Origin: a virus
Lineage: Duplodnaviria; Heunggongvirae; Uroviricota; Caudoviricetes
IMG/VR virus record: IMGVR_UViG_2711768018_000004
Reading direction: 5' to 3' (one strand)
Length of the DNA stretch: 9,833 nucleotides
Of this stretch, positions 1 through 9,833 are shown piece after piece. The notes under the pieces were generated by a model. That model did not search any database. It was not told the origin of the DNA and worked only from the letters and a program-made list of their open reading frames with translations. Both the position numbers and the translations under genes were made by a program. Within the stretch, counting starts at the first letter, position 1. Each line of letters opens with the position of its first letter.

Positions 1-173
1 ATATCTACGGCAGCAAGCCAGTAATGGGTTAAGTGATAACAGGTGTCTGGAAATATAGGGGCAAATCCAGCGTTCATCAGCCCCCGCATTGCCGACAGGA
101 TCACAGACGGGGGGCGCAACTGGTTGTCGTTCAACTGGCCCAGCTACCGTTCTTGTATCAGAGGTGTGGCTGC

Positions 174-1565
174 ATGACAACACCAGTCTGGCGTAATGAT
201 GACCTGGAAGGCGCTGTCATTGGCGCATTCTTTCTGCGTGGGGCAGATCATGAAGTGATGGATATTCTGATCACACTACCGGCGGACATTTTTTCTGTAC
301 GAGCGTATCGGGATATCTACACAGGCATCTGCAGACAGGCCCGTGTTTCAGGAGTGATTGACCCCGTGCTGTTGTGTAATGAGATGCCGGAACTTGCCCC
401 GGTGATTACTGATACCGGGCGTAAAACCTGGGTGAAGTCTTCACTGGAGCACTATGTTGCAGCGTTGCGGCGCAATGCCGCACTGCGCGATGCAGAAAAA
501 ACACTGAATGAGGCGCTGCAGAAATTACGTGATGCGCATACCTGTGAAGCAGCTGAAGATGCCCTGAAGGATGCGCAGAACATGATGGTCACACTGTCGA
601 CAGGAAAGGGCGTCATTCAGCCGGTACATATTGATGATGTGCTTCCGGAAGTGGTTGAGCGTGTTGAATGCCGGAATCAGGGGCTGGAGAAATCCAGGAC
701 GTTGATGACCGGTATTGATGAACTGGACGCAAAAACAGGCGGTATGGAGCCCGGAGACCTGGTATTCATTGCCGCCCGTCCTTCGATGGGGAAAACCGAA
801 CTTGCGCTGGACATCATCGACAAGGTGACTGAGCAGGGGCATGGTGTGCTTCTGTTCACCATGGAGATGGCGAACATCCAGATTGGTGAACGTATGGTGT
901 CTGCGGCTGGAGGGATGCCAGTATCACGCCTGAAATCTGTGGCTCACTTTGAAGATGAAGACTGGGCGCGTTTCTCACAAGGGGTGGGGCGGATGACCGG
1001 GCGCAATATCTGGATGGTGGACCAGGCGAACCTGACCATTGATGAGATATGCGCAACAACGAAACACCATCTGATTAAACATCCGGAAACGGCGCTGGTG
1101 GTGGTTGATTATCTCGGGCTGATAAAAACCCGAACCACGGGGCGTCATGACCTTGCCGTGGGTGAAATCTCAAAGGGGCTTAAAGGCCTGGCAAAATCCG
1201 GTGGTTTTCCGTTGATTGCGCTGAGCCAGCTCTCCCGCGGTGTGGAGTCCAGACCCAATAAACGTCCCATGAACTCAGACCTGAAAAATTCCGGAGAAAT
1301 AGAGGCGGATGCAGACATCATTCTGATGCTTTACAGGGATGAAGTGTACAACCCGGATACACAGGCTACAGGCATAGCAGAAATTAATATCACGAAACAA
1401 CGTAACGGTTCTCTGGGGACGATTTACCGGCGTTTTTATAACGGACATTTTCTGCCTGTGGACCAGGAAAGCGCACAGGTTCTTTCCACCCCAATGCGGC
1501 AGCCCCAGCCGCGCAGATACAGCAATACACGTACCGACAGCAGTAAGATGGAGCGTTTCTTTTGA
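174..1565 (+). CDS. Replicative DNA helicase, DnaB family (phage replication helicase, P22 gene 12-like)
   Basis: Same frame as track ORF 33..1565. Walker A motif ARPSMGKT, C-terminal DnaB motifs (ALSQLSRGVESRPNKRPMNSDLKNSGEIEADADI, ITKQRNG) and an N-terminal LEGAVIGAFFL segment resembling the DnaB N-domain. ATG at 174 is preceded by GAGGTG with a 7-nt spacer and gives 463 aa. The track start at 33 is a GTG placed immediately after an in-frame stop, and the 47 aa it would add are Cys/His/Trp-rich and not protein-like. Confidence 0.85.
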   Translation: MTTPVWRNDDLEGAVIGAFFLRGADHEVMDILITLPADIFSVRAYRDIYTGICRQARVSGVIDPVLLCNEMPELAPVITDTGRKTWVKSSLEHYVAALRRNAALRDAEKTLNEALQKLRDAHTCEAAEDALKDAQNMMVTLSTGKGVIQPVHIDDVLPEVVERVECRNQGLEKSRTLMTGIDELDAKTGGMEPGDLVFIAARPSMGKTELALDIIDKVTEQGHGVLLFTMEMANIQIGERMVSAAGGMPVSRLKSVAHFEDEDWARFSQGVGRMTGRNIWMVDQANLTIDEICATTKHHLIKHPETALVVVDYLGLIKTRTTGRHDLAVGEISKGLKGLAKSGGFPLIALSQLSRGVESRPNKRPMNSDLKNSGEIEADADIILMLYRDEVYNPDTQATGIAEINITKQRNGSLGTIYRRFYNGHFLPVDQESAQVLSTPMRQPQPRRYSNTRTDSSKMERFF

Positions 1566-1576
1566 ACAACCAGACA

Positions 1577-1819
1577 ATGACTTTTACCTCTGAACAATTG
1601 CGTAAACACGCGCAGGAAATGTTGCGACAGGCGGAACAACTGGAAAAAACAGGTGTAACAAAAGATGCCATTCGTCGGGATATGGTGCCAGCGCTCAGGG
1701 AACTGATGCAGGCGAAACATCGCGCACAAAAAGCGGTGGATGAGCTCGTTGATTGTGTGGCAGAGCTGGAAACCAAAGTTGGAAAGTTTGAAAAAATGGT
1801 GCAGGAGGTGCTGCGCTGA
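1577..1819 (+). CDS. Hypothetical small protein (80 aa, charged, predicted helical)
   Basis: Open frame between the helicase and rusA. Its stop TGA (1817-1819) overlaps the rusA ATG (1819-1821) as TGATG, suggesting translational coupling. No recognised motif. First ATG is at 1577; an alternative TTG start at 1562 has GGAG 8 nt upstream and overlaps the helicase stop. Confidence 0.5.
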   Translation: MTFTSEQLRKHAQEMLRQAEQLEKTGVTKDAIRRDMVPALRELMQAKHRAQKAVDELVDCVAELETKVGKFEKMVQEVLR

Positions 1820-2190
1820 TGCGCCATGAGTTTATTTTACCTTATCCGCCGACGGTGAATACTTACTGGCGACGTCGTGGCAGCACATATTTTGTATCAA
1901 AAGTTGGTGAGCGTTATCGCCGTGATGTGACGCTAATTGTTCGCCAGCAGCGGCTGAAATTAAACCTGTCCGGAAGGCTGGCGATAAAGATTATTGCAGA
2001 GCCACCGGATAAGCGCCGTCGTGACCTGGACAATATCCTGAAAGCACCACTGGATGCGCTGACGCATGCCGGACTACTCATAGACGACGAGCAGTTTGAT
2101 GAAATCAATATTGTGCGCGGTCAGCTCGTTCCTGGTGGGCGACTGGGCGTGAAGATTTATGAAATCACAGGTGATAACGATGGCGCGTGA
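1819..2190 (+). CDS. rusA: Holliday junction resolvase RusA
   Basis: 123 aa. Colinear with E. coli RusA as recalled, including the hallmark [22 protein letters not shown] segment (RusA: [22 protein letters not shown]) and the C-terminal GGRL motif. ATG at 1819. Confidence 0.9.
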
Positions 2191-2566
2191 TATTCAGCAG
2201 GTTATGGAACGGTGGGGGGCTTGGGCTGCAAACACTCATGAAGATGTATCCTGGGCGTCGATCGCTGCTGGTTTTAAAGGGTTAATTCCGTCGAAAGTGA
2301 AATCACGCCCTCAGTGTTCTGATGATGATGCAATGATAATTTGTGGCTGTATGGCCCGGTTGAACAAGAAAAATCAGGATTTGCACGATTTGCTGGTGGA
2401 TTATTACGTAGGTGGAATGACTTTTATGAGTCTGGCACGGAAACATGGGTGTTCGGATACCTGTATTGGCAAGCGCCTGCAGAAAGCGGAAGGGGTTATT
2501 GATGGCATGTTGATGATGCTTGATATCCGGCTGGAGATGGACAGATACGTAGAACGAATTATGTAG
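2180..2566 (+). CDS. Q: Late-gene antitermination protein Q (QuuD / phage 82-type Q family)
   Basis: [18 protein letters not shown]...[16 protein letters not shown]...[27 protein letters not shown]...DIRLEM closely matches the recalled DLP12 QuuD-type Q protein. ATG at 2180 is preceded by AGGTGA with a 5-nt spacer. It overlaps the rusA 3' end by 11 nt. The track start at 2159 would add 7 aa without a good RBS. Confidence 0.85.
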
Positions 2567-2840: not shown

Positions 2841-2873
2841 TCCCCGCGGTGCTCAAAACACCTCGAAAGCGGT

Positions 2874-2901
2874 ATCCACACCCGATAGCCATGTGGTTTT
2901 T
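2874..2901 (+). terminator. Weak hairpin plus T7 run (attenuator/terminator-like)
   Basis: CCACA (2874-2878) pairs with TGTGG (2890-2894) across an 11-nt loop, followed by TTTTTTT (2895-2901). The stem is short, so this is tentative. Confidence 0.3.
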
Positions 2902-3046
2902 TTGTGTCCAGAATTCTTGGTTTATGACCGGGTGTGCGGCTAATACAATACCAGCAATGGAAATACGCCCGCCGACTTTCGACGGTTTTGAGCGCCCGGT
3001 CACCCTCTCAAAAGGGGTAAATCAAAATATTCGAAAGGACATGTCT

Positions 3047-3610
3047 ATGAATCGCACGTCTATTGAAAAACTCCCGTCACTTACGCATAACCATCTTCCT
3101 GTCATGACAACAGAGCTGCTGGCTGATTTGTACGGAACAGAGCGCCAGCGTTTGACAAACAATTTCAATCGAAACAAAGAACGGTTTATAGAAGGTAAAC
3201 ATTTTTTCCTGATAGAAGGTGATGCGTTACGAGAGTTGAAGAACGAAAACTCTTTAAGAGTTTCTGTGAAAATTGCCCGTAACGTTCGCTCCCTCATCCT
3301 CTGGACAGAACGTGGCGCAGCCCGTCACGCCAAAATGCTCGAAACCGATCAGGCGTGGGAAGTGTTCGAAAAACTGGAAGACTGTTATTTCAACCAGAAA
3401 CAGCCACCAGCGGCACAAAACACATCTATCGAAAATGATGGATGCGCATTACTGAGCCACTTCGATAAACACGGTCAGGTTGAGTTCACGGAAAAGGTAC
3501 CCGCCGATGCGATGGTATGTACTCTGGAACGGTTTAAATTTTATCTGGAGCAACACGGGTGGATCGTTGCCCGTAAAGAGCAACTGGTGGAGCGGTTGAT
3601 GCGGTTTTAA
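3047..3610 (+). CDS. ORF6N-domain protein (Ant/KilA-N-like DNA-binding fold), function unknown; late-region cargo gene
   Basis: 187 aa from ATG 3047, with AAAGGA 7 nt upstream. Residues ~15-110 (TTELLADLYGTERQRLTNNFNRNKERFIEGKHFFLIEGDALRELKN...ILWTERGAARHAKML) follow the ORF6N-domain consensus as recalled. The C-terminal ~75 aa have no motif I recognise. An in-frame ATG at 2957 lacks an RBS. Confidence 0.7.
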   Translation: MNRTSIEKLPSLTHNHLPVMTTELLADLYGTERQRLTNNFNRNKERFIEGKHFFLIEGDALRELKNENSLRVSVKIARNVRSLILWTERGAARHAKMLETDQAWEVFEKLEDCYFNQKQPPAAQNTSIENDGCALLSHFDKHGQVEFTEKVPADAMVCTLERFKFYLEQHGWIVARKEQLVERLMRF

Positions 3611-3687
3611 AAATTTTTTCCGAAAACTTTACGATCGTAAAAAGTTGAATATCCTGTTAAGAGTGGTTACTACGCCACACAGCTTAA

Positions 3688-3711
3688 ACCCGCCGATGAG
3701 CGGGTTTTTTT
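3688..3711 (+). terminator. Intrinsic terminator downstream of the ORF6N-domain gene
   Basis: Stem ACCCGC (3688-3693) / GCGGGT (3700-3705) with loop CGATGA, followed by a 7-T run to 3711. Upstream A-run makes it potentially bidirectional. Confidence 0.7.
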
Positions 3712-3761
3712 ATACCTGAAAAACGGCACAGGACGTTAAACGTGCTGGTGGTCAGATGAGT

Positions 3762-3799: not shown

Positions 3800-3876
3800 G
3801 GCCCTTTAGCTCAGTTGGTCAGAGCGAGCGACTCATAATCGCCAGGTCGCTGGTTCAAGTCCAGCAAGGGCCACCA
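3800..3876 (+). tRNA. ileZ: tRNA with anticodon CAT, most likely tRNA-Ile2 (lysidine type, ileX/ileZ-like); tRNA-Met not excluded
   Basis: Cloverleaf: acceptor GGCCCTT/AAGGGCC, anticodon loop CTCATAA, T-arm GCTGG-TTCAAGT-CCAGC, encoded CCA. Very similar to E. coli ileX as recalled. Confidence 0.85.
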
Positions 3877-3877
3877 A

Positions 3878-3954
3878 CCACCACTAGCTCATCCGGATAG
3901 AGCATCAACCTTCTAAGTTGACGGTGCGAGGTTCGAGTCCTCGGTGGTGGGCCA
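3878..3954 (+). tRNA. argN: tRNA-Arg (anticodon TCT, reads AGA)
   Basis: Acceptor CCACCAC/GTGGTGG, anticodon stem TCAAC/GTTGA with loop CTTCTAA, T-arm CGAGG-TTCGAGT-CCTCG, encoded CCA. Starts 1 nt after the previous tRNA. Confidence 0.85.
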
Positions 3955-3956
3955 GC

Positions 3957-4032
<76 letters not shown>

Positions 4033-4035
4033 TAT

Positions 4036-4110
<75 letters not shown>

Positions 4111-4237: not shown

Positions 4238-4600
4238 NNNNNNNNNNNNNNNNNNNNNNNNNNNNNNNNNNNNNNNNNNNNNNNNNNNNNNNNNNNNNNN
4301 NNNNNNNNNNNNNNNNNNNNNNNNNNNNNNNNNNNNNNNNNNNNNNNNNNNNNNNNNNNNNNNNNNNNNNNNNNNNNNNNNNNNNNNNNNNNNNNNNNNN
4401 NNNNNNNNNNNNNNNNNNNNNNNNNNNNNNNNNNNNNNNNNNNNNNNNNNNNNNNNNNNNNNNNNNNNNNNNNNNNNNNNNNNNNNNNNNNNNNNNNNNN
4501 NNNNNNNNNNNNNNNNNNNNNNNNNNNNNNNNNNNNNNNNNNNNNNNNNNNNNNNNNNNNNNNNNNNNNNNNNNNNNNNNNNNNNNNNNNNNNNNNNNNN
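4238..4600. other. Assembly gap (363 N); unresolved sequence
   Basis: Contiguous run of N. Every track ORF crossing it is an artefact of translating N as X. Confidence 0.99.
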
Positions 4601-4702
4601 ATTGGTGTGCTGGGAAGTCTGCTTCTGGGGCTTCTGACTTATCTGACAAATCTGTATTTCAAAATAAGAGAAGACAAGCGTAAGGCTGCGAGAGGTGAAT
4701 AA
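4601..4702 (+). CDS. S: Holin, phage 21 S21-type pinholin (3' fragment only; 5' part lost in the gap)
   Basis: The in-frame C-terminal 33 aa [33 protein letters not shown] match the TMD2 and C-terminus of the S21 pinholin as recalled. Stop TAA (4700-4702) overlaps the endolysin ATG (4702-4704). Confidence 0.7.
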
Positions 4703-5199
4703 TGTCGCCATCATTACGCAAGGCTGTTGCAGCTGCTATTGGTGGTGGGGCTGTTGCTATAGCATCTGTGTTAATCACTGGCCCAGGTGGTAACGATGGT
4801 CTGGAAGGTGTCAGCTACATACCATACAAAGATATCATTGGTGTATGGACTGTATGTCACGGACACACCGGAAAAGACATCATGCTCGGTAAAACGTATA
4901 CCGAAGCAGAATGCAAAGCCCTCCTGAATAAAGACCTTGCCACTGTCGCCAGACAAATTAACCCGTACATCAAAGTCGATATACCGGAAACAACGCGCGG
5001 CGCTCTTTACTCGTTCGTTTACAACGTGGGCGCTGGCAATTTCAGAACATCGACGCTTCTTCGCAAAATAAACCAGGGCGATATCAAAGGCGCATGTGAC
5101 CAGCTACGTCGCTGGACATATGCTGGCGGTAAGCAATGGAAAGGGCTGATGACCCGTCGTGAGATTGAGCGTGAAGTCTGTTTGTGGGGGCAGCAATGA
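4702..5199 (+). CDS. R: SAR endolysin (phage 21 R21-type lysozyme with N-terminal signal-anchor-release domain)
   Basis: 165 aa. Gly/Ala-rich weakly hydrophobic N-terminus [18 protein letters not shown] (SAR domain), then a lysozyme core with the E-D-T catalytic residues in [28 protein letters not shown] 4 nt upstream of the ATG. Confidence 0.9.
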
Positions 5200-5660
5200 G
5201 CAGAGTCACCGCGATTATCTCCGCTCTGGTTATCTGCATCATCGTCTGCCTGTCATGGGCTGTTAATCATTACCGTGATAACGCCATTACCTACAAAGAG
5301 CAGCGCGACAAAAACGCAAGAGAACTGAAGCTGGCGAACGCAACCATTACTGACATGCAGCAGAGACAGCGTGATGTTAATGCACTCGATGCTAAATACA
5401 CGAAGGAGTTAGCTGATGCGAAAGCTGAAAATGAAACTCTGCGCGCTGATGTTGCCGCTGGTCGTCGTCGGTTGCACATCAAAGCAGTCTGTCAGTCAGT
5501 GCGTGAAGCCACCACCGCCTCCGGCGTGGATAATGCAACCAGCCCCCGACTGGCAGACACCGCTGAACGGGATTATTTCACCCTCAGAGAGCGGCTGATG
5601 ACGATGCAGATGCAACTGGAAGGGGCACAGGAGTATATCCGCACTCAGTGCATTAAGTAG
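5196..5660 (+). CDS. Rz: Spanin inner-membrane subunit Rz (i-spanin)
   Basis: 154 aa, near-identical to lambda Rz as recalled ([34 protein letters not shown]...). N-terminal transmembrane segment and coiled-coil periplasmic domain. ATG 5196-5198 overlaps the endolysin stop TGA 5197-5199. Confidence 0.9.
5416..5598 (+). CDS. Rz1: Spanin outer-membrane lipoprotein subunit Rz1 (o-spanin), embedded in Rz in the +1 frame
   Basis: 60 aa [24 protein letters not shown]...PPPPP..., with a lipobox Cys and proline-rich region, matching lambda Rz1 as recalled. GGAG RBS 7 nt upstream of the ATG at 5416. Confidence 0.85.
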
Positions 5661-5702
5661 CCTTTTTATCGTGGTAAACATTTCGCAGGGTATGAGGTAT
5701 TT

Positions 5703-6053
5703 ATGCCATCACTAATCCCACGTGCCTGCCGTAAGCGTGGATGTGCAGGTACAACCACAGACAGTTCGGGTTACTGCGATAAACATCGCGGTGAAGGCTG
5801 GGTGCAGCACCAGCGCGGACTGAGCCGCCACCAGCGTGGCTATGGCTCAAAATGGACGGTGATTCGTGCCCGTATTCTGAAGCGCGATAAAGGTCTGTGT
5901 CAGTTGTGTCTGCGTGTCGGTGTGGTGAGCGAGGCGAAAACCGTCGACCACATCATCCCGAAAGCGCATGGCGGAACAGACGCAGACAGCAACCTGCAGA
6001 GTCTGTGCTGGCCCTGCCATAAAGCGAAAACAGCGCGCGAACGAATCCGGTGA
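5703..6053 (+). CDS. HNH endonuclease (terminase-associated, HK97 gp74-like)
   Basis: 116 aa with Cys-rich zinc-binding pairs (CRKRGC, CQLC, CWPCH) and the HNH core DHIIPKAHGG...N. Lies immediately upstream of the terminase genes, the characteristic position of the packaging HNH nuclease in cos phages. Confidence 0.8.
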   Translation: MPSLIPRACRKRGCAGTTTDSSGYCDKHRGEGWVQHQRGLSRHQRGYGSKWTVIRARILKRDKGLCQLCLRVGVVSEAKTVDHIIPKAHGGTDADSNLQSLCWPCHKAKTARERIR

Positions 6054-6074
6054 TAATTATTCTCACTTGTAGGG

Positions 6075-6134
6075 AGGGGCGGGGCAAATCCCTGTGACCT
6101 GACGTCTTCCGGACTGCCCGCCCCATCGTTTTTT
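6075..6134. other. GC-rich long hairpin followed by a T7 run; candidate cos (cohesive-end/packaging) region or terminator
   Basis: GGGGCGGG (6075-6082) pairs with CCCGCCCC (6116-6123) across a 33-nt loop containing the GACGTC palindrome, followed by ATCG and TTTTTTT (6128-6134). Sits between the HNH and terminase small subunit genes, where HK97-like phages carry cos. Confidence 0.35.
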
Positions 6135-6174
6135 TATACCCGCGAAAAATGAAATTTAACCAGGAGTGCCGCAT

Positions 6175-6669
6175 ATGGCTGGAACGGCGGGGCGTTCCGG
6201 GCGTCGCCCCAAGCCAACGGCGCGCAAGGCGCTGGCCGGAAACCCCGGCAAGCGAGCCCTGAACAAAGATGAACCTGTTTTTACGCCCATCAAAGGTGTT
6301 GAGCCACCAGAGTGGTTCGCTGAAGAAGATCTCCCTCTCGCCACGATCATGTGGCAACTGACAACCAAAGAACTCTGCGGTCAGGGCCTGCTGTGCGTGA
6401 CTGACCTGGCGGTACTTGAGCGGTGGTGCGTGGCCTATGAGTTCTGGCGACGTGCCGTGAAAAATATTGCCATACAGGGCAACACCATCACCGGTGCAAT
6501 GGGCGGCAGGGTCAAAAATCCGGAGCTGACCGCCAAAAAAGAACAGGAGTCCGAGATGAGCAGCACGGGGGCAATGCTCGGACTCGACCCCAGCAGCCGC
6601 CAGCGTCTGATTGGCCTGGCGGGGCAGAAGAAAGCCACTAACCCGTTTCTGAAAATTATCGAATCATGA
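6175..6669 (+). CDS. Terminase small subunit (P27 family)
   Basis: 164 aa starting [27 protein letters not shown], the typical P27-family TerS N-terminus. AGGAG RBS 8 nt upstream of ATG 6175. Stop overlaps the TerL start (ATGA). Confidence 0.85.
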
Positions 6670-8399
6670 GCCGGAAATCTTACCCCAACGTAAATGCTGC
6701 AAATCAGTATGCCCGGGATGTCGTGCGCGGAAAGATTGTTGCCTGCCAGTTTGTGATTCAGGCCTGCCAGCGCCATCTTGATGACCTGATGGCGGAAAAA
6801 AGTAAGTCGTTTCGTTACCGCTTCGACAAGGACCTGGCTGAACGGGCCGCGAAATTTATTCAGCTGTTGCCGCACACCAAGGGGGAGTGGGCATTCAAAC
6901 GGATGCCCATCACGCTGGAGCCGTGGCAGCTATTTGTGATCTGCTGTGCGTTTGGCTGGGTCAATAAAGGCACCCGGTTGCGCCGCTTCCGGGAGGTGTA
7001 CACCGAAATCCCCCGTAAGAACGGCAAATCAGCAATCTCTGCCGGTGTTGCCCTGTATTGTTTTGCCTGTGATAACGAGTTTGGCGCGGAAGTGTATTCC
7101 GGTGCCACGACAGAGAAACAGGCGTGGGAAGTCTTTCGCCCGGCGCGACTGATGTGTAAACGCACACCCATGCTGACGGAAGCGTTCGGGATTGAGGTTA
7201 ACGCCTCAAACATGAACCGTCCGGAGGATGGCGCGCGGTTTGAACCGCTGATCGGCAACCCAGGTGATGGTTCATCACCCCACTGTGCCGTGGTTGATGA
7301 ATATCACGAGCATGCCACCGATGCGCTTTATACCACAATGCTTACCGGGATGGGGGCGCGACGTCAGCCACTGATGTGGGCCATCACCACCGCCGGGTAC
7401 AACATTGAGGGGCCGTGCTACGACAAGCGGCGGGAAGTCATCGAGATGCTCAACGGCTCGGTGCCTAACGATGAACTGTTCGGGATCATCTATACCGTTG
7501 ATGAAGGTGACGACTGGACCGGCCCGCAGGTGCTGGAAAAAGCCAATCCAAATATTGGCGTGTCGGTTTATCGCGAATTTTTGTTAAGTCAGCAGCAGCG
7601 TGCGAAAAATAACGCCCGTCTGGCAAACGTCTTTAAAACAAAACACCTCAATATCTGGGTGTCGGCGCGTTCGGCGTATTTCAACTTGGTGAGCTGGCAG
7701 AGCTGCGAGGATAAATCACTGACCCTTGAGCAGTTCGAGGGGCAGCCGTGCATTCTGGCCTTTGACCTGGCGCGTAAGCTGGATATGAACAGCATGGCGC
7801 GACTTTATACCCGCGAGATTGACGGTAAAACGCATTACTACAGTGTGGCCCCGCGTTTCTGGGTACCGTATGACACGGTGTACAGCGTCGAGAAAAATGA
7901 AGATCGACGGACAGCCGAACGCTTTCAGAAATGGGTGGAAATGGGCGTTCTGACCGTTACCGATGGTGCGGAGGTGGATTATCGCTACATCCTCGAGGAG
8001 GCCAAAGCGGCGAACAAAATCAGCCCGGTCAGTGAGTCACCCATCGACCCCTTCGGGGCGACCGGGTTGTCACATGACCTTGCTGATGAAGACCTGAATC
8101 CCGTCACTATCGTCCAGAACTTCACCAATATGTCCGATCCGATGAAAGAGCTGGAAGCAGCGATTGAATCGGGACGTTTTCATCATGACGGCAATCCCAT
8201 CATGACCTGGTGTATCGGCAACGTGGTCGGCAAAAACATGCCGGGTAACGATGATGTGGTGAAACCCGTCAAAGAGCAGGCGGAAAACAAAATCGATGGT
8301 GCAGTTGCGCTGATTATGGCGGTTGGCAGAGCCATGCTGTACGAGAAAGAAGACACGCTGTCTGACCACATTGAGTCCTACGGGATCCGCTCGCTTTAA
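6666..8399 (+). CDS. Terminase large subunit (HK97-like, Terminase_1 family)
   Basis: 577 aa with a P-loop-like RKNGKSA segment in the N-terminal ATPase region and a C-terminal nuclease-domain-sized region. Size and position (TerS upstream, portal downstream) are typical. Confidence 0.9.
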
Positions 8400-8410
8400 C
8401 TGAGGTAATT

Positions 8411-8593
8411 ATGATCATGCTGATTCTCGCGCCTCTGGTGGGCGTGCTGGGTGCGCTTTTGCTGGCGTATGGTGCCTGGCTGATTTATCCCCCGGCGGGT
8501 TTTGTTGTTGCCGGGGCGCTGTGCCTGTTCTGGTCGTGGCTGGTGGCGCGATATCTCGACCGTACACGGCAGTCTGTCGGCGGAGGTAAATAG
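8411..8593 (+). CDS. Small hydrophobic protein (60 aa, two predicted transmembrane segments), hypothetical
   Basis: ATG 8411 with GAGGT 4 nt upstream. Strongly hydrophobic sequence [48 protein letters not shown]. Stop TAG overlaps the putative portal GTG start. Could be spurious. Confidence 0.4.
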
Positions 8594-9749
8594 TGTTCTT
8601 TTCGGGATTATTTCAACGAAAAAGCGATGTGCCGGTGACCACGCCAGCAGAACTGCTGATGCTATCGGGCTGTCATACGACACCTATACCGGAAAGCGGA
8701 TCAGTAGCCAGCGGGCCATGCGCCTGACGGCGGTCTATTCTTGCGTCAGGGTGCTGGCAGAGTCTGTTGGTATGCTGCCCTGCAGTCTCTACAAAATCAG
8801 CGGTACCCTGAAAACACGGGCGGTGGATGAACGACTGCATAAGTTGGTTTCGGCAAAACCTAATGGCTACATGACACCGCAGGAATTCTGGGAGCTGGTT
8901 ATTGTCTGCCTGTGTCTACGGGGGAATTTTTACGCCTACAAGGTAAAGGCACTGGGAGAAGTGGTGGAGCTTCTTCCGATAGATCCGGGCTGTGTGGAAC
9001 CGAAGCTGAACAGCCAGTGGCAGCCGGTTTATCAGGTGACGTTTCCGGATGGTTCCGTGGATGTGTTGACCCAGAATGAAATCTGGCATGTGCGCACCCT
9101 GACGCTGGATGGACTTGTCGGGCTGAATCCCATTGCGTATGCGCGTGAGGCCATTTCACTGGCAGCGGCAACCGAGGAGCACGGTGCCAGGTTGTTTAGT
9201 AATGGTGCGGTGACATCCGGTGTGTTGCGTACGGAACAAAAGCTCACGCCGGATGCTTACGAGCGTCTGAAGAAAGATTTTGAGGAGTGTCACACGGGGC
9301 TTGGCAATGCTCACCGCCCGATGATTCTGGAAATGGGGCTGGACTGGAAGTCGATGGCGCTGAACGCCGAGGACAGTCAGTTCCTGGAAACCCGCAAGTT
9401 TCAGCTGGAAGAAATCTGTCGTCTGTTCCGGGTGCCGTTGCACATGGTGCAGAACACCGATCGCGCCACCTTCAACAATATCGAAGAGCTGGGGCTGGGA
9501 TTTATCAACTATTCACTGGTGCCGTATCTGACCCGCATCGAACAGCGGATCAACACCGGACTGGTACGAAAAAGTAAGCAGGGCGTTTATTACGCCAAAT
9601 TTAACGCCGGGGCGTTACTGCGCGGGGATATGAAGTCCCGTTTTGAAGCCTACGCCACCGGGATCAACTGGGGAATTTACTCTTCCAATGACTGCCGCGA
9701 CCTGGAAGATATGAATCCGCGTCCCGGTGGTGTAATGCCGATCAGTTAA
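8593..9749 (+). CDS. Portal protein, HK97 family; reading frame apparently interrupted by a 1-bp indel near 8667-8669 (possible pseudogene or sequencing error)
   Basis: Frame +3 from about 8664 to 9749 encodes a portal-like body (TAVYSCVRVLAESVGMLP... through ...PRPGGVMPIS). The likely N-terminus (GTG 8593, GGAGGT RBS, MFFSGLFQRKSDVPVTTPAELLMLSG) is in frame +2 and hits TGA at 8725-8727. The span 8593..9749 is 1157 nt, not a multiple of 3. Confidence 0.75.
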
Positions 9750-9782
9750 GGATCAGTTGACCGATCCAGTGGCTGTGTAAGA

Positions 9783-9816
9783 ATCCGGAAACGCTCACTT
9801 GTTTCCGGATTTTTTT
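9783..9816 (+). terminator. Strong intrinsic terminator downstream of the portal gene
   Basis: 10-bp stem ATCCGGAAAC (9783-9792) / GTTTCCGGAT (9801-9810) with 8-nt loop GCTCACTT, followed by a T-run to 9816. Confidence 0.7.
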
Positions 9817-9833
9817 ATGCACATTGGACAGGC

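Follow-up and report, generated by a model that had tools for sequence, protein, structure and literature searches.

The virion chromosome ends of phage SfI were located by run-off sequencing, which on comparison with the prophage left a 10-nt gap, 5'-TGCCCGCCCC-3', and the authors concluded that SfI packages its DNA by a cos mechanism; the same paper terms the cos mechanism of SfV only 'postulated' (PMC3636060). The cohesive ends of HK97 are 10-nt 3' overhangs, and its HNH protein, gp74, binds the large terminase subunit (TerL) and stimulates cos cleavage (PMC9410871). In the view taken in the literature, one of the two nicks comes from the HNH enzyme and the other from TerL (PMC12967558). 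HNH enzymes encoded next to phage cos sites (those of GVE2 and phage gamma, among others) are nickases that recognize CG^GT, which reads AC^CG on the other strand, with ACTG tolerated as a star site (Xu and Gupta, PMC3592412; here and below the caret marks a cut or junction). The small terminase subunit (TerS) of HK97 binds CTAACCCGATTTTTT at positions +15 to +29 through one G:C contact and an A-tract (PMC11331095). In phage lambda, the cosQ element that lies beside the cohesive end functions in termination (PMC4669245).

The DNA analysed here, a stretch of 9,833 nt that we call the window, represents the late region of a lambdoid prophage in which every gene lies on the plus strand. Its genes and larger features are as follows.

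33-1565, plus strand: DnaB-like helicase
1819-2190, plus strand: RusA
2159-2566, plus strand: Q antiterminator
2849-3610, plus strand: ORF6N-domain protein
3686-3715: canonical intrinsic terminator (8-bp stem, 6-nt loop, T-run), called by the terminator scan
3800-4110, plus strand: four tRNA genes in tandem
3800-3876: tRNA Met(CAT)
3878-3954: tRNA Arg(TCT)
3957-4032: tRNA Thr(TGT)
4036-4110: tRNA Gly(TCC)
4238-4600: masked run of 363 N
4702-5199, plus strand: lysozyme
5184-5660, plus strand: Rz
5703-6053, plus strand: HNH endonuclease with zinc ribbon and HNH motif (Pfam PF01844, E 1.6e-16)
6054-6174: gap of 121 nt between the HNH and TerS genes
6175-6669, plus strand: TerS of the P27 family (PF05119, E 3.7e-20), with its ATG at 6175
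6666-8399, plus strand: TerL, ATPase and nuclease (PF03354 and PF20441)
8502-9749, plus strand: portal protein (PF04860, E 3.3e-107)

The order HNH - TerS - TerL - portal, which an earlier note had read from the sequence, agrees with the Pfam assignments of all four genes, and the four reading frames are intact. The HNH product is an accessory nuclease of the packaging machine; it is 99% identical in amino acid sequence to phiP27 L34, 78% to SfV orf53 and 34% to HK97 gp74 (E 2e-10), and it matches the GVE2 HNH nickase (GVE2 HNHE, PDB 5H0M) over its full length, zinc ribbon and HNH motif included (E 1.1e-12). TerS is 98% identical in amino acid sequence to SfV orf1 and 48% identical to phiP27 L35. 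TerL is 78% identical to the phiP27 terminase and 26% identical to HK97 gp2 over 522 residues (E 8e-31), and it groups with the HK97 cos terminases. Upstream of these genes, the tRNA cluster and the terminator at 3686-3715 sit downstream of the Q gene, in what is usually the pR'/tR' late-control region of lambdoid phages. The N run separates the tRNA cluster from the lysozyme gene; open reading frames listed across it are artefacts, and an apparent holin gene that ends at 4702 retains only its C-terminal 33 codons, the remainder being lost in the run.

The gap between the HNH and TerS genes holds the following elements, named for the parts that they may play in packaging.

6072-6090, plus strand: upstream box, GGGAGGGGCGGGG followed by CAAATC, containing the 5' arm (6076-6083) of an inverted repeat
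6091-6114, plus strand: spacer of 24 bp, fixed in length and variable in sequence, ending in AC (6113-6114) and including GACGTC (6101-6106)
6115-6124, plus strand: cohesive-end sequence TGCCCGCCCC, the cosN equivalent, which also includes the 3' arm of the inverted repeat
6129-6149, plus strand: TTTTTTT-ATACCCGCG-AAAAA, a TerS-class-specific element containing the T-run, a putative cosB-like TerS binding site
6162-6166: ribosome-binding site AGGAG of the TerS gene

The central observation is that positions 6115-6124 are identical to the decamer mapped on SfI virion DNA, a sequence that occurs once in the window. The earlier note had proposed a cos site here in preference to a terminator and had named virion ends mapping elsewhere as the outcome that would speak against it; the SfI ends, which come from a phage nearly identical to the window in its cos region and TerS, fall inside the 6071-6134 interval that it had marked. 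The window also carries the pattern (T/C)GCCCGCCCC of a 10-nt cohesive end between HNH and TerS genes. Other records point to the same register. The phiP27 record (AJ298298) annotates a misc_feature 'cos-site' at 21806-21815 on the homologous CGCCCGCCCC, which is identical to the window decamer at 9/10 positions. The linear SfI record ends in ...GGACTGCCCGCCCC, directly after the decamer, and restarts with GTCGTTTTTTTATACCCGCG..., and that of the Edwardsiella phage EPP-1 likewise ends directly after its decamer (...GTACTGCCCGCCTC). The HK97 record ends in ...ATGACCGCCGCCAAA and begins with GTTTGAATTTAACGCTAACCCGATTTTTTT, placing its terminal CGCCGCCAAA in the same register as the window decamer; its numbering agrees with that published for the TerS site, in which T16, the G:C pair at 21 and the A-tract at 24-29 are specified (PMC11331095). 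The alignment to known cos regions that the earlier note had suggested as a check thus yields homology both to the annotated phiP27 cos-site and to the right end of HK97. The GenBank records of SfV and SfIV start 7 nt upstream of the decamer, at the equivalent of window position 6108 and inside the spacer; we regard the SfV start as conventional rather than mapped, since the SfI paper calls the SfV mechanism 'postulated'.

Judged from its sequence, the 121-bp gap is very probably the cos site of an SfV/SfI/phiP27-type lambdoid prophage, with packaging that would be HK97-like and HNH-dependent. We place the nicks at 6114/6115 on the bottom strand and at 6124/6125 on the top strand, which would give 10-nt 3' overhangs; the ends are taken to protrude at 3' because the SfI run-off reads left a gap and not an overlap, and because HK97 has 3' overhangs.

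A search of phage records with megablast returned matches to SfI, SfII, SfIV, SfV, Salmonella phage ST64B, the Stx2e phage phiP27, several Klebsiella phages and others. The window is closest to the SfI/SfV/SfII/SfIV set, with which it shares an identical decamer and a 98% identical TerS. From the end of the decamer through the TerS start, the window and SfV are identical (73/73 nt), and SfI differs from the window downstream of the cut only at the first base. What separates the window from the SfI/SfV type is its left side, as the HNH gene and the left edge of the G-box (the G-rich part of the upstream box) are of phiP27 type. Conversely, phiP27 shares with the window the HNH protein, the G-box, the 24-bp spacing, the AC junction, nine bases of the decamer, the TTTTTACACCCGCGAAA element that follows the decamer and a TerL at 78% identity, but its TerS is only 48% identical, its spacer is of other sequence and without GACGTC, and DNA homology to the window stops at about 6147.

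HK97 is a more distant counterpart. It has the same gene order, homologous TerL and HNH proteins and an HNH protein that stimulates cos cleavage; its G-run and CAAATC stand exactly 24 bp before GAC^CGCCGCCAAA, a GC core beside an A/T tract follows the cut at a distance of about 15-30 bp, and the start codon of TerS falls at +50, compared with +51 in the window. It differs in that its TerS is unrelated at both sequence and profile level, its gp74 is without an N-terminal zinc ribbon, and no inverted repeat connects its G-run and cohesive end. The likeness to lambda is one of logic, as in both cases a conserved upstream element, a cohesive end with a conserved left half and a variable right part, and a downstream site, specific to TerS, that determines packaging specificity make up a tripartite site (PMC4669245). 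Lambda, however, has 12-nt 5' overhangs, no HNH protein, unrelated terminase subunits and an IHF-assisted cosB. Its cohesive end, GGGCGGCGACCT, is absent from the window even with 2 mismatches allowed, and because of this absence, and because the terminase families differ (P27 and HK97 in the window), the site is not of lambda type. The window cos belongs to the SfV/SfI/phiP27 cos family, itself part of the broader group of HK97-type, HNH-dependent cos systems.

To describe how the site varies, cos regions were collected from 80 viral contigs chosen by HNH similarity, 41 loci from bacterial genomes taken at one genome per species, and phage records, which together yielded about 70-80 distinct regions. 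Forty-nine distinct relatives, HK97 included, align without gaps over 66 columns; the invariant columns are 6076-6078 and 6082 in the G-box, AAATC at 6086-6090, AC at 6113-6114, GCC at 6116-6118 and C at 6121, and as many of the relatives are close kin, this invariance partly reflects shared descent. One IMG/VR contig, L020, is identical to the window across the cos region. Over the wider set, the G-box is found in about 80 distinct cos regions across Enterobacterales and always at a fixed distance from the cut, and the general layout is a G-rich box with (C/T)AAA(T/A)(C/G), a spacer of exactly 24 nt that ends in AC, and the decamer. The spacer keeps this exact length with differing sequence in the window, SfV, SfI, ST64B, phiP27, the Klebsiella phages, EPP-1, HK97 and Yersinia prophages, the last of which preserve the 24-nt spacing although their decamer is the A/T-rich CTATCATCGT. 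In a count made over 80 distinct regions without an AC filter, AC closes the spacer in 79 (78 by script and one, L138, by re-registration by hand), against a background frequency of 5% for AC; the sole exception is a Paraburkholderia locus. The blocks and their spacing are therefore conserved in the relatives far beyond chance. We found no description of the G-box or of the spacing rule in the searchable literature, older subscription papers being outside our reach.

The decamer itself is conserved in its left part, (C/T)GCC, and varies among relatives in its last three bases, and a constant G-box stands beside TGCCCGCCCC, CGCCCGCCAA, CGCCCGCCTA, CGCCCGCCTC, CGCCGCCTGA, CGCCGCCTCA or CTATCATCGT. 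The GACGTC palindrome was also considered as a cut site and rejected, as it is missing from the spacers of phiP27-type phages, Klebsiella phages, EPP-1 and HK97 and is confined to the SfV-type spacer.

The features on which the earlier note had based its proposal are present in the gap: a G/C-rich tract, GGGAGGGGCGGGGC, occupies 6072-6085; a perfect 8-bp inverted repeat is formed by GGGGCGGG (6076-6083) and CCCGCCCC (6117-6124) with 33 nt between the arms; and GACGTC lies where it was described, at 6101-6106. The T-run does begin 4 nt past the stem, after ATCG, and comprises seven T at 6129-6135, one base beyond the end of the marked interval (6134). The weight placed on these features shifts, however, because the hairpin is not the functional unit, the palindrome is specific to a lineage, and the T-run belongs to a TerS-linked element. 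As a structure, the hairpin did not hold up. The DNA fold of 6071-6134 has an energy of -13.1 kcal/mol (z = -1.53), which 19/200 shuffles match, and the RNA fold of the whole gap gives z = -1.21. Of 2000 dinucleotide shuffles of the gap, 122 (6%) contain a perfect 8-bp inverted repeat whose loop is no longer than 40 nt, and the window as a whole contains 10 such 8-mer repeats, compared with 5.6 +/- 3.1 expected. Neither Rfam at a permissive E-value (5600-6600) nor a terminator and promoter scan of 5000-7000 produced a match or call in the gap. Covariation between the arms in the 49 distinct relatives scores 0.087, compared with 0.086 for shuffled alignments (189/500 shuffles score at least as high), and sliding the partner column by +3 leaves the share of paired cells nearly unchanged (71.9% and 73.0%). 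All eight Watson-Crick pairs are kept in 11/70 distinct relatives, and only 3/8 are kept in 30/70, in which the G-box is unchanged. The 3' arm is the cohesive end itself and the 5' arm is part of the separately conserved G-box; the stem arises because two G/C-rich sites happen to be complementary in one lineage, and the inverted repeat is a by-product of two G/C-rich protein sites and not a folded structure.

These results bear on two other readings of the gap. In the first, the stem at 6076-6083/6117-6124 and the T-run at 6129-6135 would form a Rho-independent terminator that ends the lysis/HNH transcript. A GC-rich 8-bp stem and a T7 run do exist, and the stem appears in the RNA fold predicted for the gap, but with a loop of 33 nt and a T-run set 4 nt apart from the stem, the scan that calls the canonical terminator at 3686-3715 is silent here. 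In addition, the fold is no better than that of shuffled sequences in DNA or RNA (z of -1.5 and -1.2), the stem is broken in most relatives without compensatory change, and the late operon controlled from Q (2159-2566) must read past this point to reach TerS, TerL and portal, which lie on the same strand. The T-run, moreover, is not a terminator tail, because it is conserved together with an ACCCGCG-AAAAA element that tracks the TerS class, and we regard a terminator as extremely unlikely. In the second reading, the inverted repeat would extrude as a hairpin or cruciform, a structural cos signal for terminase or the HNH protein. In its favour, branched DNA can be a substrate of HNH-family enzymes, and the cut region of the SfV/SfI/phiP27 lineage is flanked by a perfect 8-bp G/C repeat. 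Set against this are the same relatives counted above, in which full pairing is confined to 11 of the 70 and 30 retain three pairs beside an unchanged G-box; HK97, which has the same layout and spacing and no such repeat; covariation equal to that of shuffled controls; a stability of z = -1.5 only; and a centre of symmetry at about 6100 that is off-centre to the nicks. Such a signal is very unlikely.

Downstream of the cut, conserved sequence continues past the 6129-6149 element to about 6159 (TGAAATTTAA). The sequence TTTTTAYACCCGCGAAA is present at +7 to +23 in every relative that has a TerS of SfV or P27 type, two types that are 48% identical to each other, and these relatives come from Escherichia, Shigella, Salmonella, Klebsiella, Edwardsiella, Providencia, Lonsdalea, Leclercia and Kosakonia. 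Relatives with other TerS classes carry unrelated sequence in its place: a third class (22% identical) has ...CGCCGCAGGTT(C/A)GAAAACTTTTTT after the cut, and the F1055 type has TTTTTACGCGCC(C)AAAATAAG. This co-segregation is consistent with the view that TerS probably binds the element at 6129-6149. Within it, TACCCGCGAAAAA at +13 to +25 resembles the HK97 TerS site, and the likeness is one of resemblance only. Neither BLASTP nor Pfam detects similarity between the window TerS and HK97 gp1, hhalign of a profile of six P27-family TerS sequences against gp1 returns a probability of 0.3%, a PDB profile search with P27-family TerS gave no matches, and a single-sequence AlphaFold model of TerS (pLDDT 39.5) is too poor for a fold search. 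Because the window TerS is not detectably related to HK97 gp1, the DNA-binding mode of the latter transfers by analogy only. Among the TerS proteins compared, that of EPP-1 (L012 48-641) differs from the window TerS in internally repeating, in tandem, about 37 residues of the N-terminal arm.

The same comparison reveals how the site is assembled from exchangeable parts. The same decamer types are paired with different downstream classes, and therefore units composed of HNH gene, G-box and spacer on one side, and of TerS site and TerS gene on the other, recombine at the cut. Across the relatives, modules of the HNH side and the TerS side are shuffled exactly at the cos cut, which makes the cos site a mosaic boundary. 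The window is an example within a single locus: its left side is of phiP27 type (the HNH protein at 99% amino acid identity and the left edge of the G-box), and its spacer, decamer and TerS are of SfV type (TerS at 98%). This makes the window a P27/SfV recombinant whose crossover lies at about 6085-6094.

A working model for the site can be put together from these parts. After induction, concatemeric DNA would be recognized and cut within the gap by TerS and TerL working with the HNH nuclease, and staggered nicks flanking 6115-6124 would produce the 10-nt 3' cohesive ends TGCCCGCCCC. The right-hand DNA, with the TerS gene first, would enter the capsid first, and the left-hand DNA, which ends with the HNH gene, would enter last. 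The three parts of the site, namely the G-box with CAAATC, the decamer and the TerS-linked element, would then parallel cosQ, cosN and cosB of lambda, with TerS presumably seated on the downstream element. In position the G-box resembles cosQ: it lies on the side that is packaged last, at a constant distance from the nick, and it is equally conserved; it may position the HNH protein or TerL, or it may signal termination, and we infer that one of these two proteins binds it.

The division of the two cuts is suggested by the left cohesive-end junction. It reads AC^CG or AC^TG in 79/80 distinct relatives; the CG form is the one most of them have, and the window and SfI have the TG form. If the overhangs are 3', the bottom-strand nick coincides exactly with the arrow of the nickase site, AC^YG. 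This match suggests that the AC^YG junction is the HNH nickase motif, and that the HNH enzyme would nick the bottom strand at AC^(C/T)G and TerL the top strand. This assignment agrees with the published proposal of one nick from each enzyme, and with the binding of TerL and the stimulation of cos cleavage by gp74. As a counterpoint to a sequence-specific nick at this junction, HK97 gp74 and lactococcal HrdP are reported in the literature to cut non-specifically in vitro. One further proposal, which we put forward tentatively and consider rather doubtful, is that the G-box and CAAATC form a docking site that places the HNH protein, alone or with TerL, for the bottom-strand nick at AC^YG, TerL cutting the top strand 10 nt away. 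If true, docking would give a mechanistic account of the need of HK97-like cos phages for an HNH protein and of the way in which the 3' overhang is fixed.

The activity of the window's own copy was weighed against a further alternative, namely that the gap serves headful packaging as a pac site, or that the prophage is cryptic and the site a dead relic, cut no longer. Prophages of the SfV/P27 type are often defective, and this one could be; in megablast searches, no complete E. coli genome matches the 3-kb region above about 95% identity. On the other hand, TerL groups with cos terminases of the HK97 kind, the HNH gene directly upstream is a signature of HK97-type cos systems, the cos region, decamer included, is intact over its whole length and identical to that of functional SfI, and the HNH, TerS, TerL and portal frames are uninterrupted. 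A pac site or relic is accordingly scarcely credible, and the site is best read as a cos site of the SfI kind.

The 116-nt cos region is present in 1185/5426 complete E. coli genomes, mostly at an identity of at least 95%. The window cos is an already known one, belonging to a very common SfV/P27-type prophage of E. coli and Shigella, and its identification is correct but ordinary. For annotation, it fixes the physical virion chromosome ends for a prophage type found in about a fifth of complete E. coli genomes, and it means that annotators should take a 'hairpin plus T-run' located between HNH and TerS genes for cos, not for a terminator. The by-products of the comparison extend a known system and reveal no new one; they offer modest leads on the question of the HNH protein, in that the 24-bp spacing, the AC^YG junction and the exchange of modules at the cut could guide experiments on its role in HK97-type packaging.

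Two minor observations concern the surroundings of the site. An extra small gene lies directly downstream of the HNH gene in twelve Enterobacterales prophages (L099, L103, L105, L106, L111, L112, L115, L117, L118, L123, L128 and L129). It stands between the HNH gene and the G-box in L099, L103, L118 and L123, and no G-box was found within the fetched flank of the others; direct adjacency of HNH and cos is therefore not universal. Some of the extra genes encode CxxC-rich peptides that resemble zinc ribbons. At the far end of the window, a terminator-like hairpin lies 3' of the portal stop codon at 9781-9819, with arms AATCCGGAAAC (9782-9792) and GTTTCCGGATT (9801-9811); unlike the 'hairpin' of the cos site, it has the textbook shape, an 8-nt loop followed by a run of eight T.
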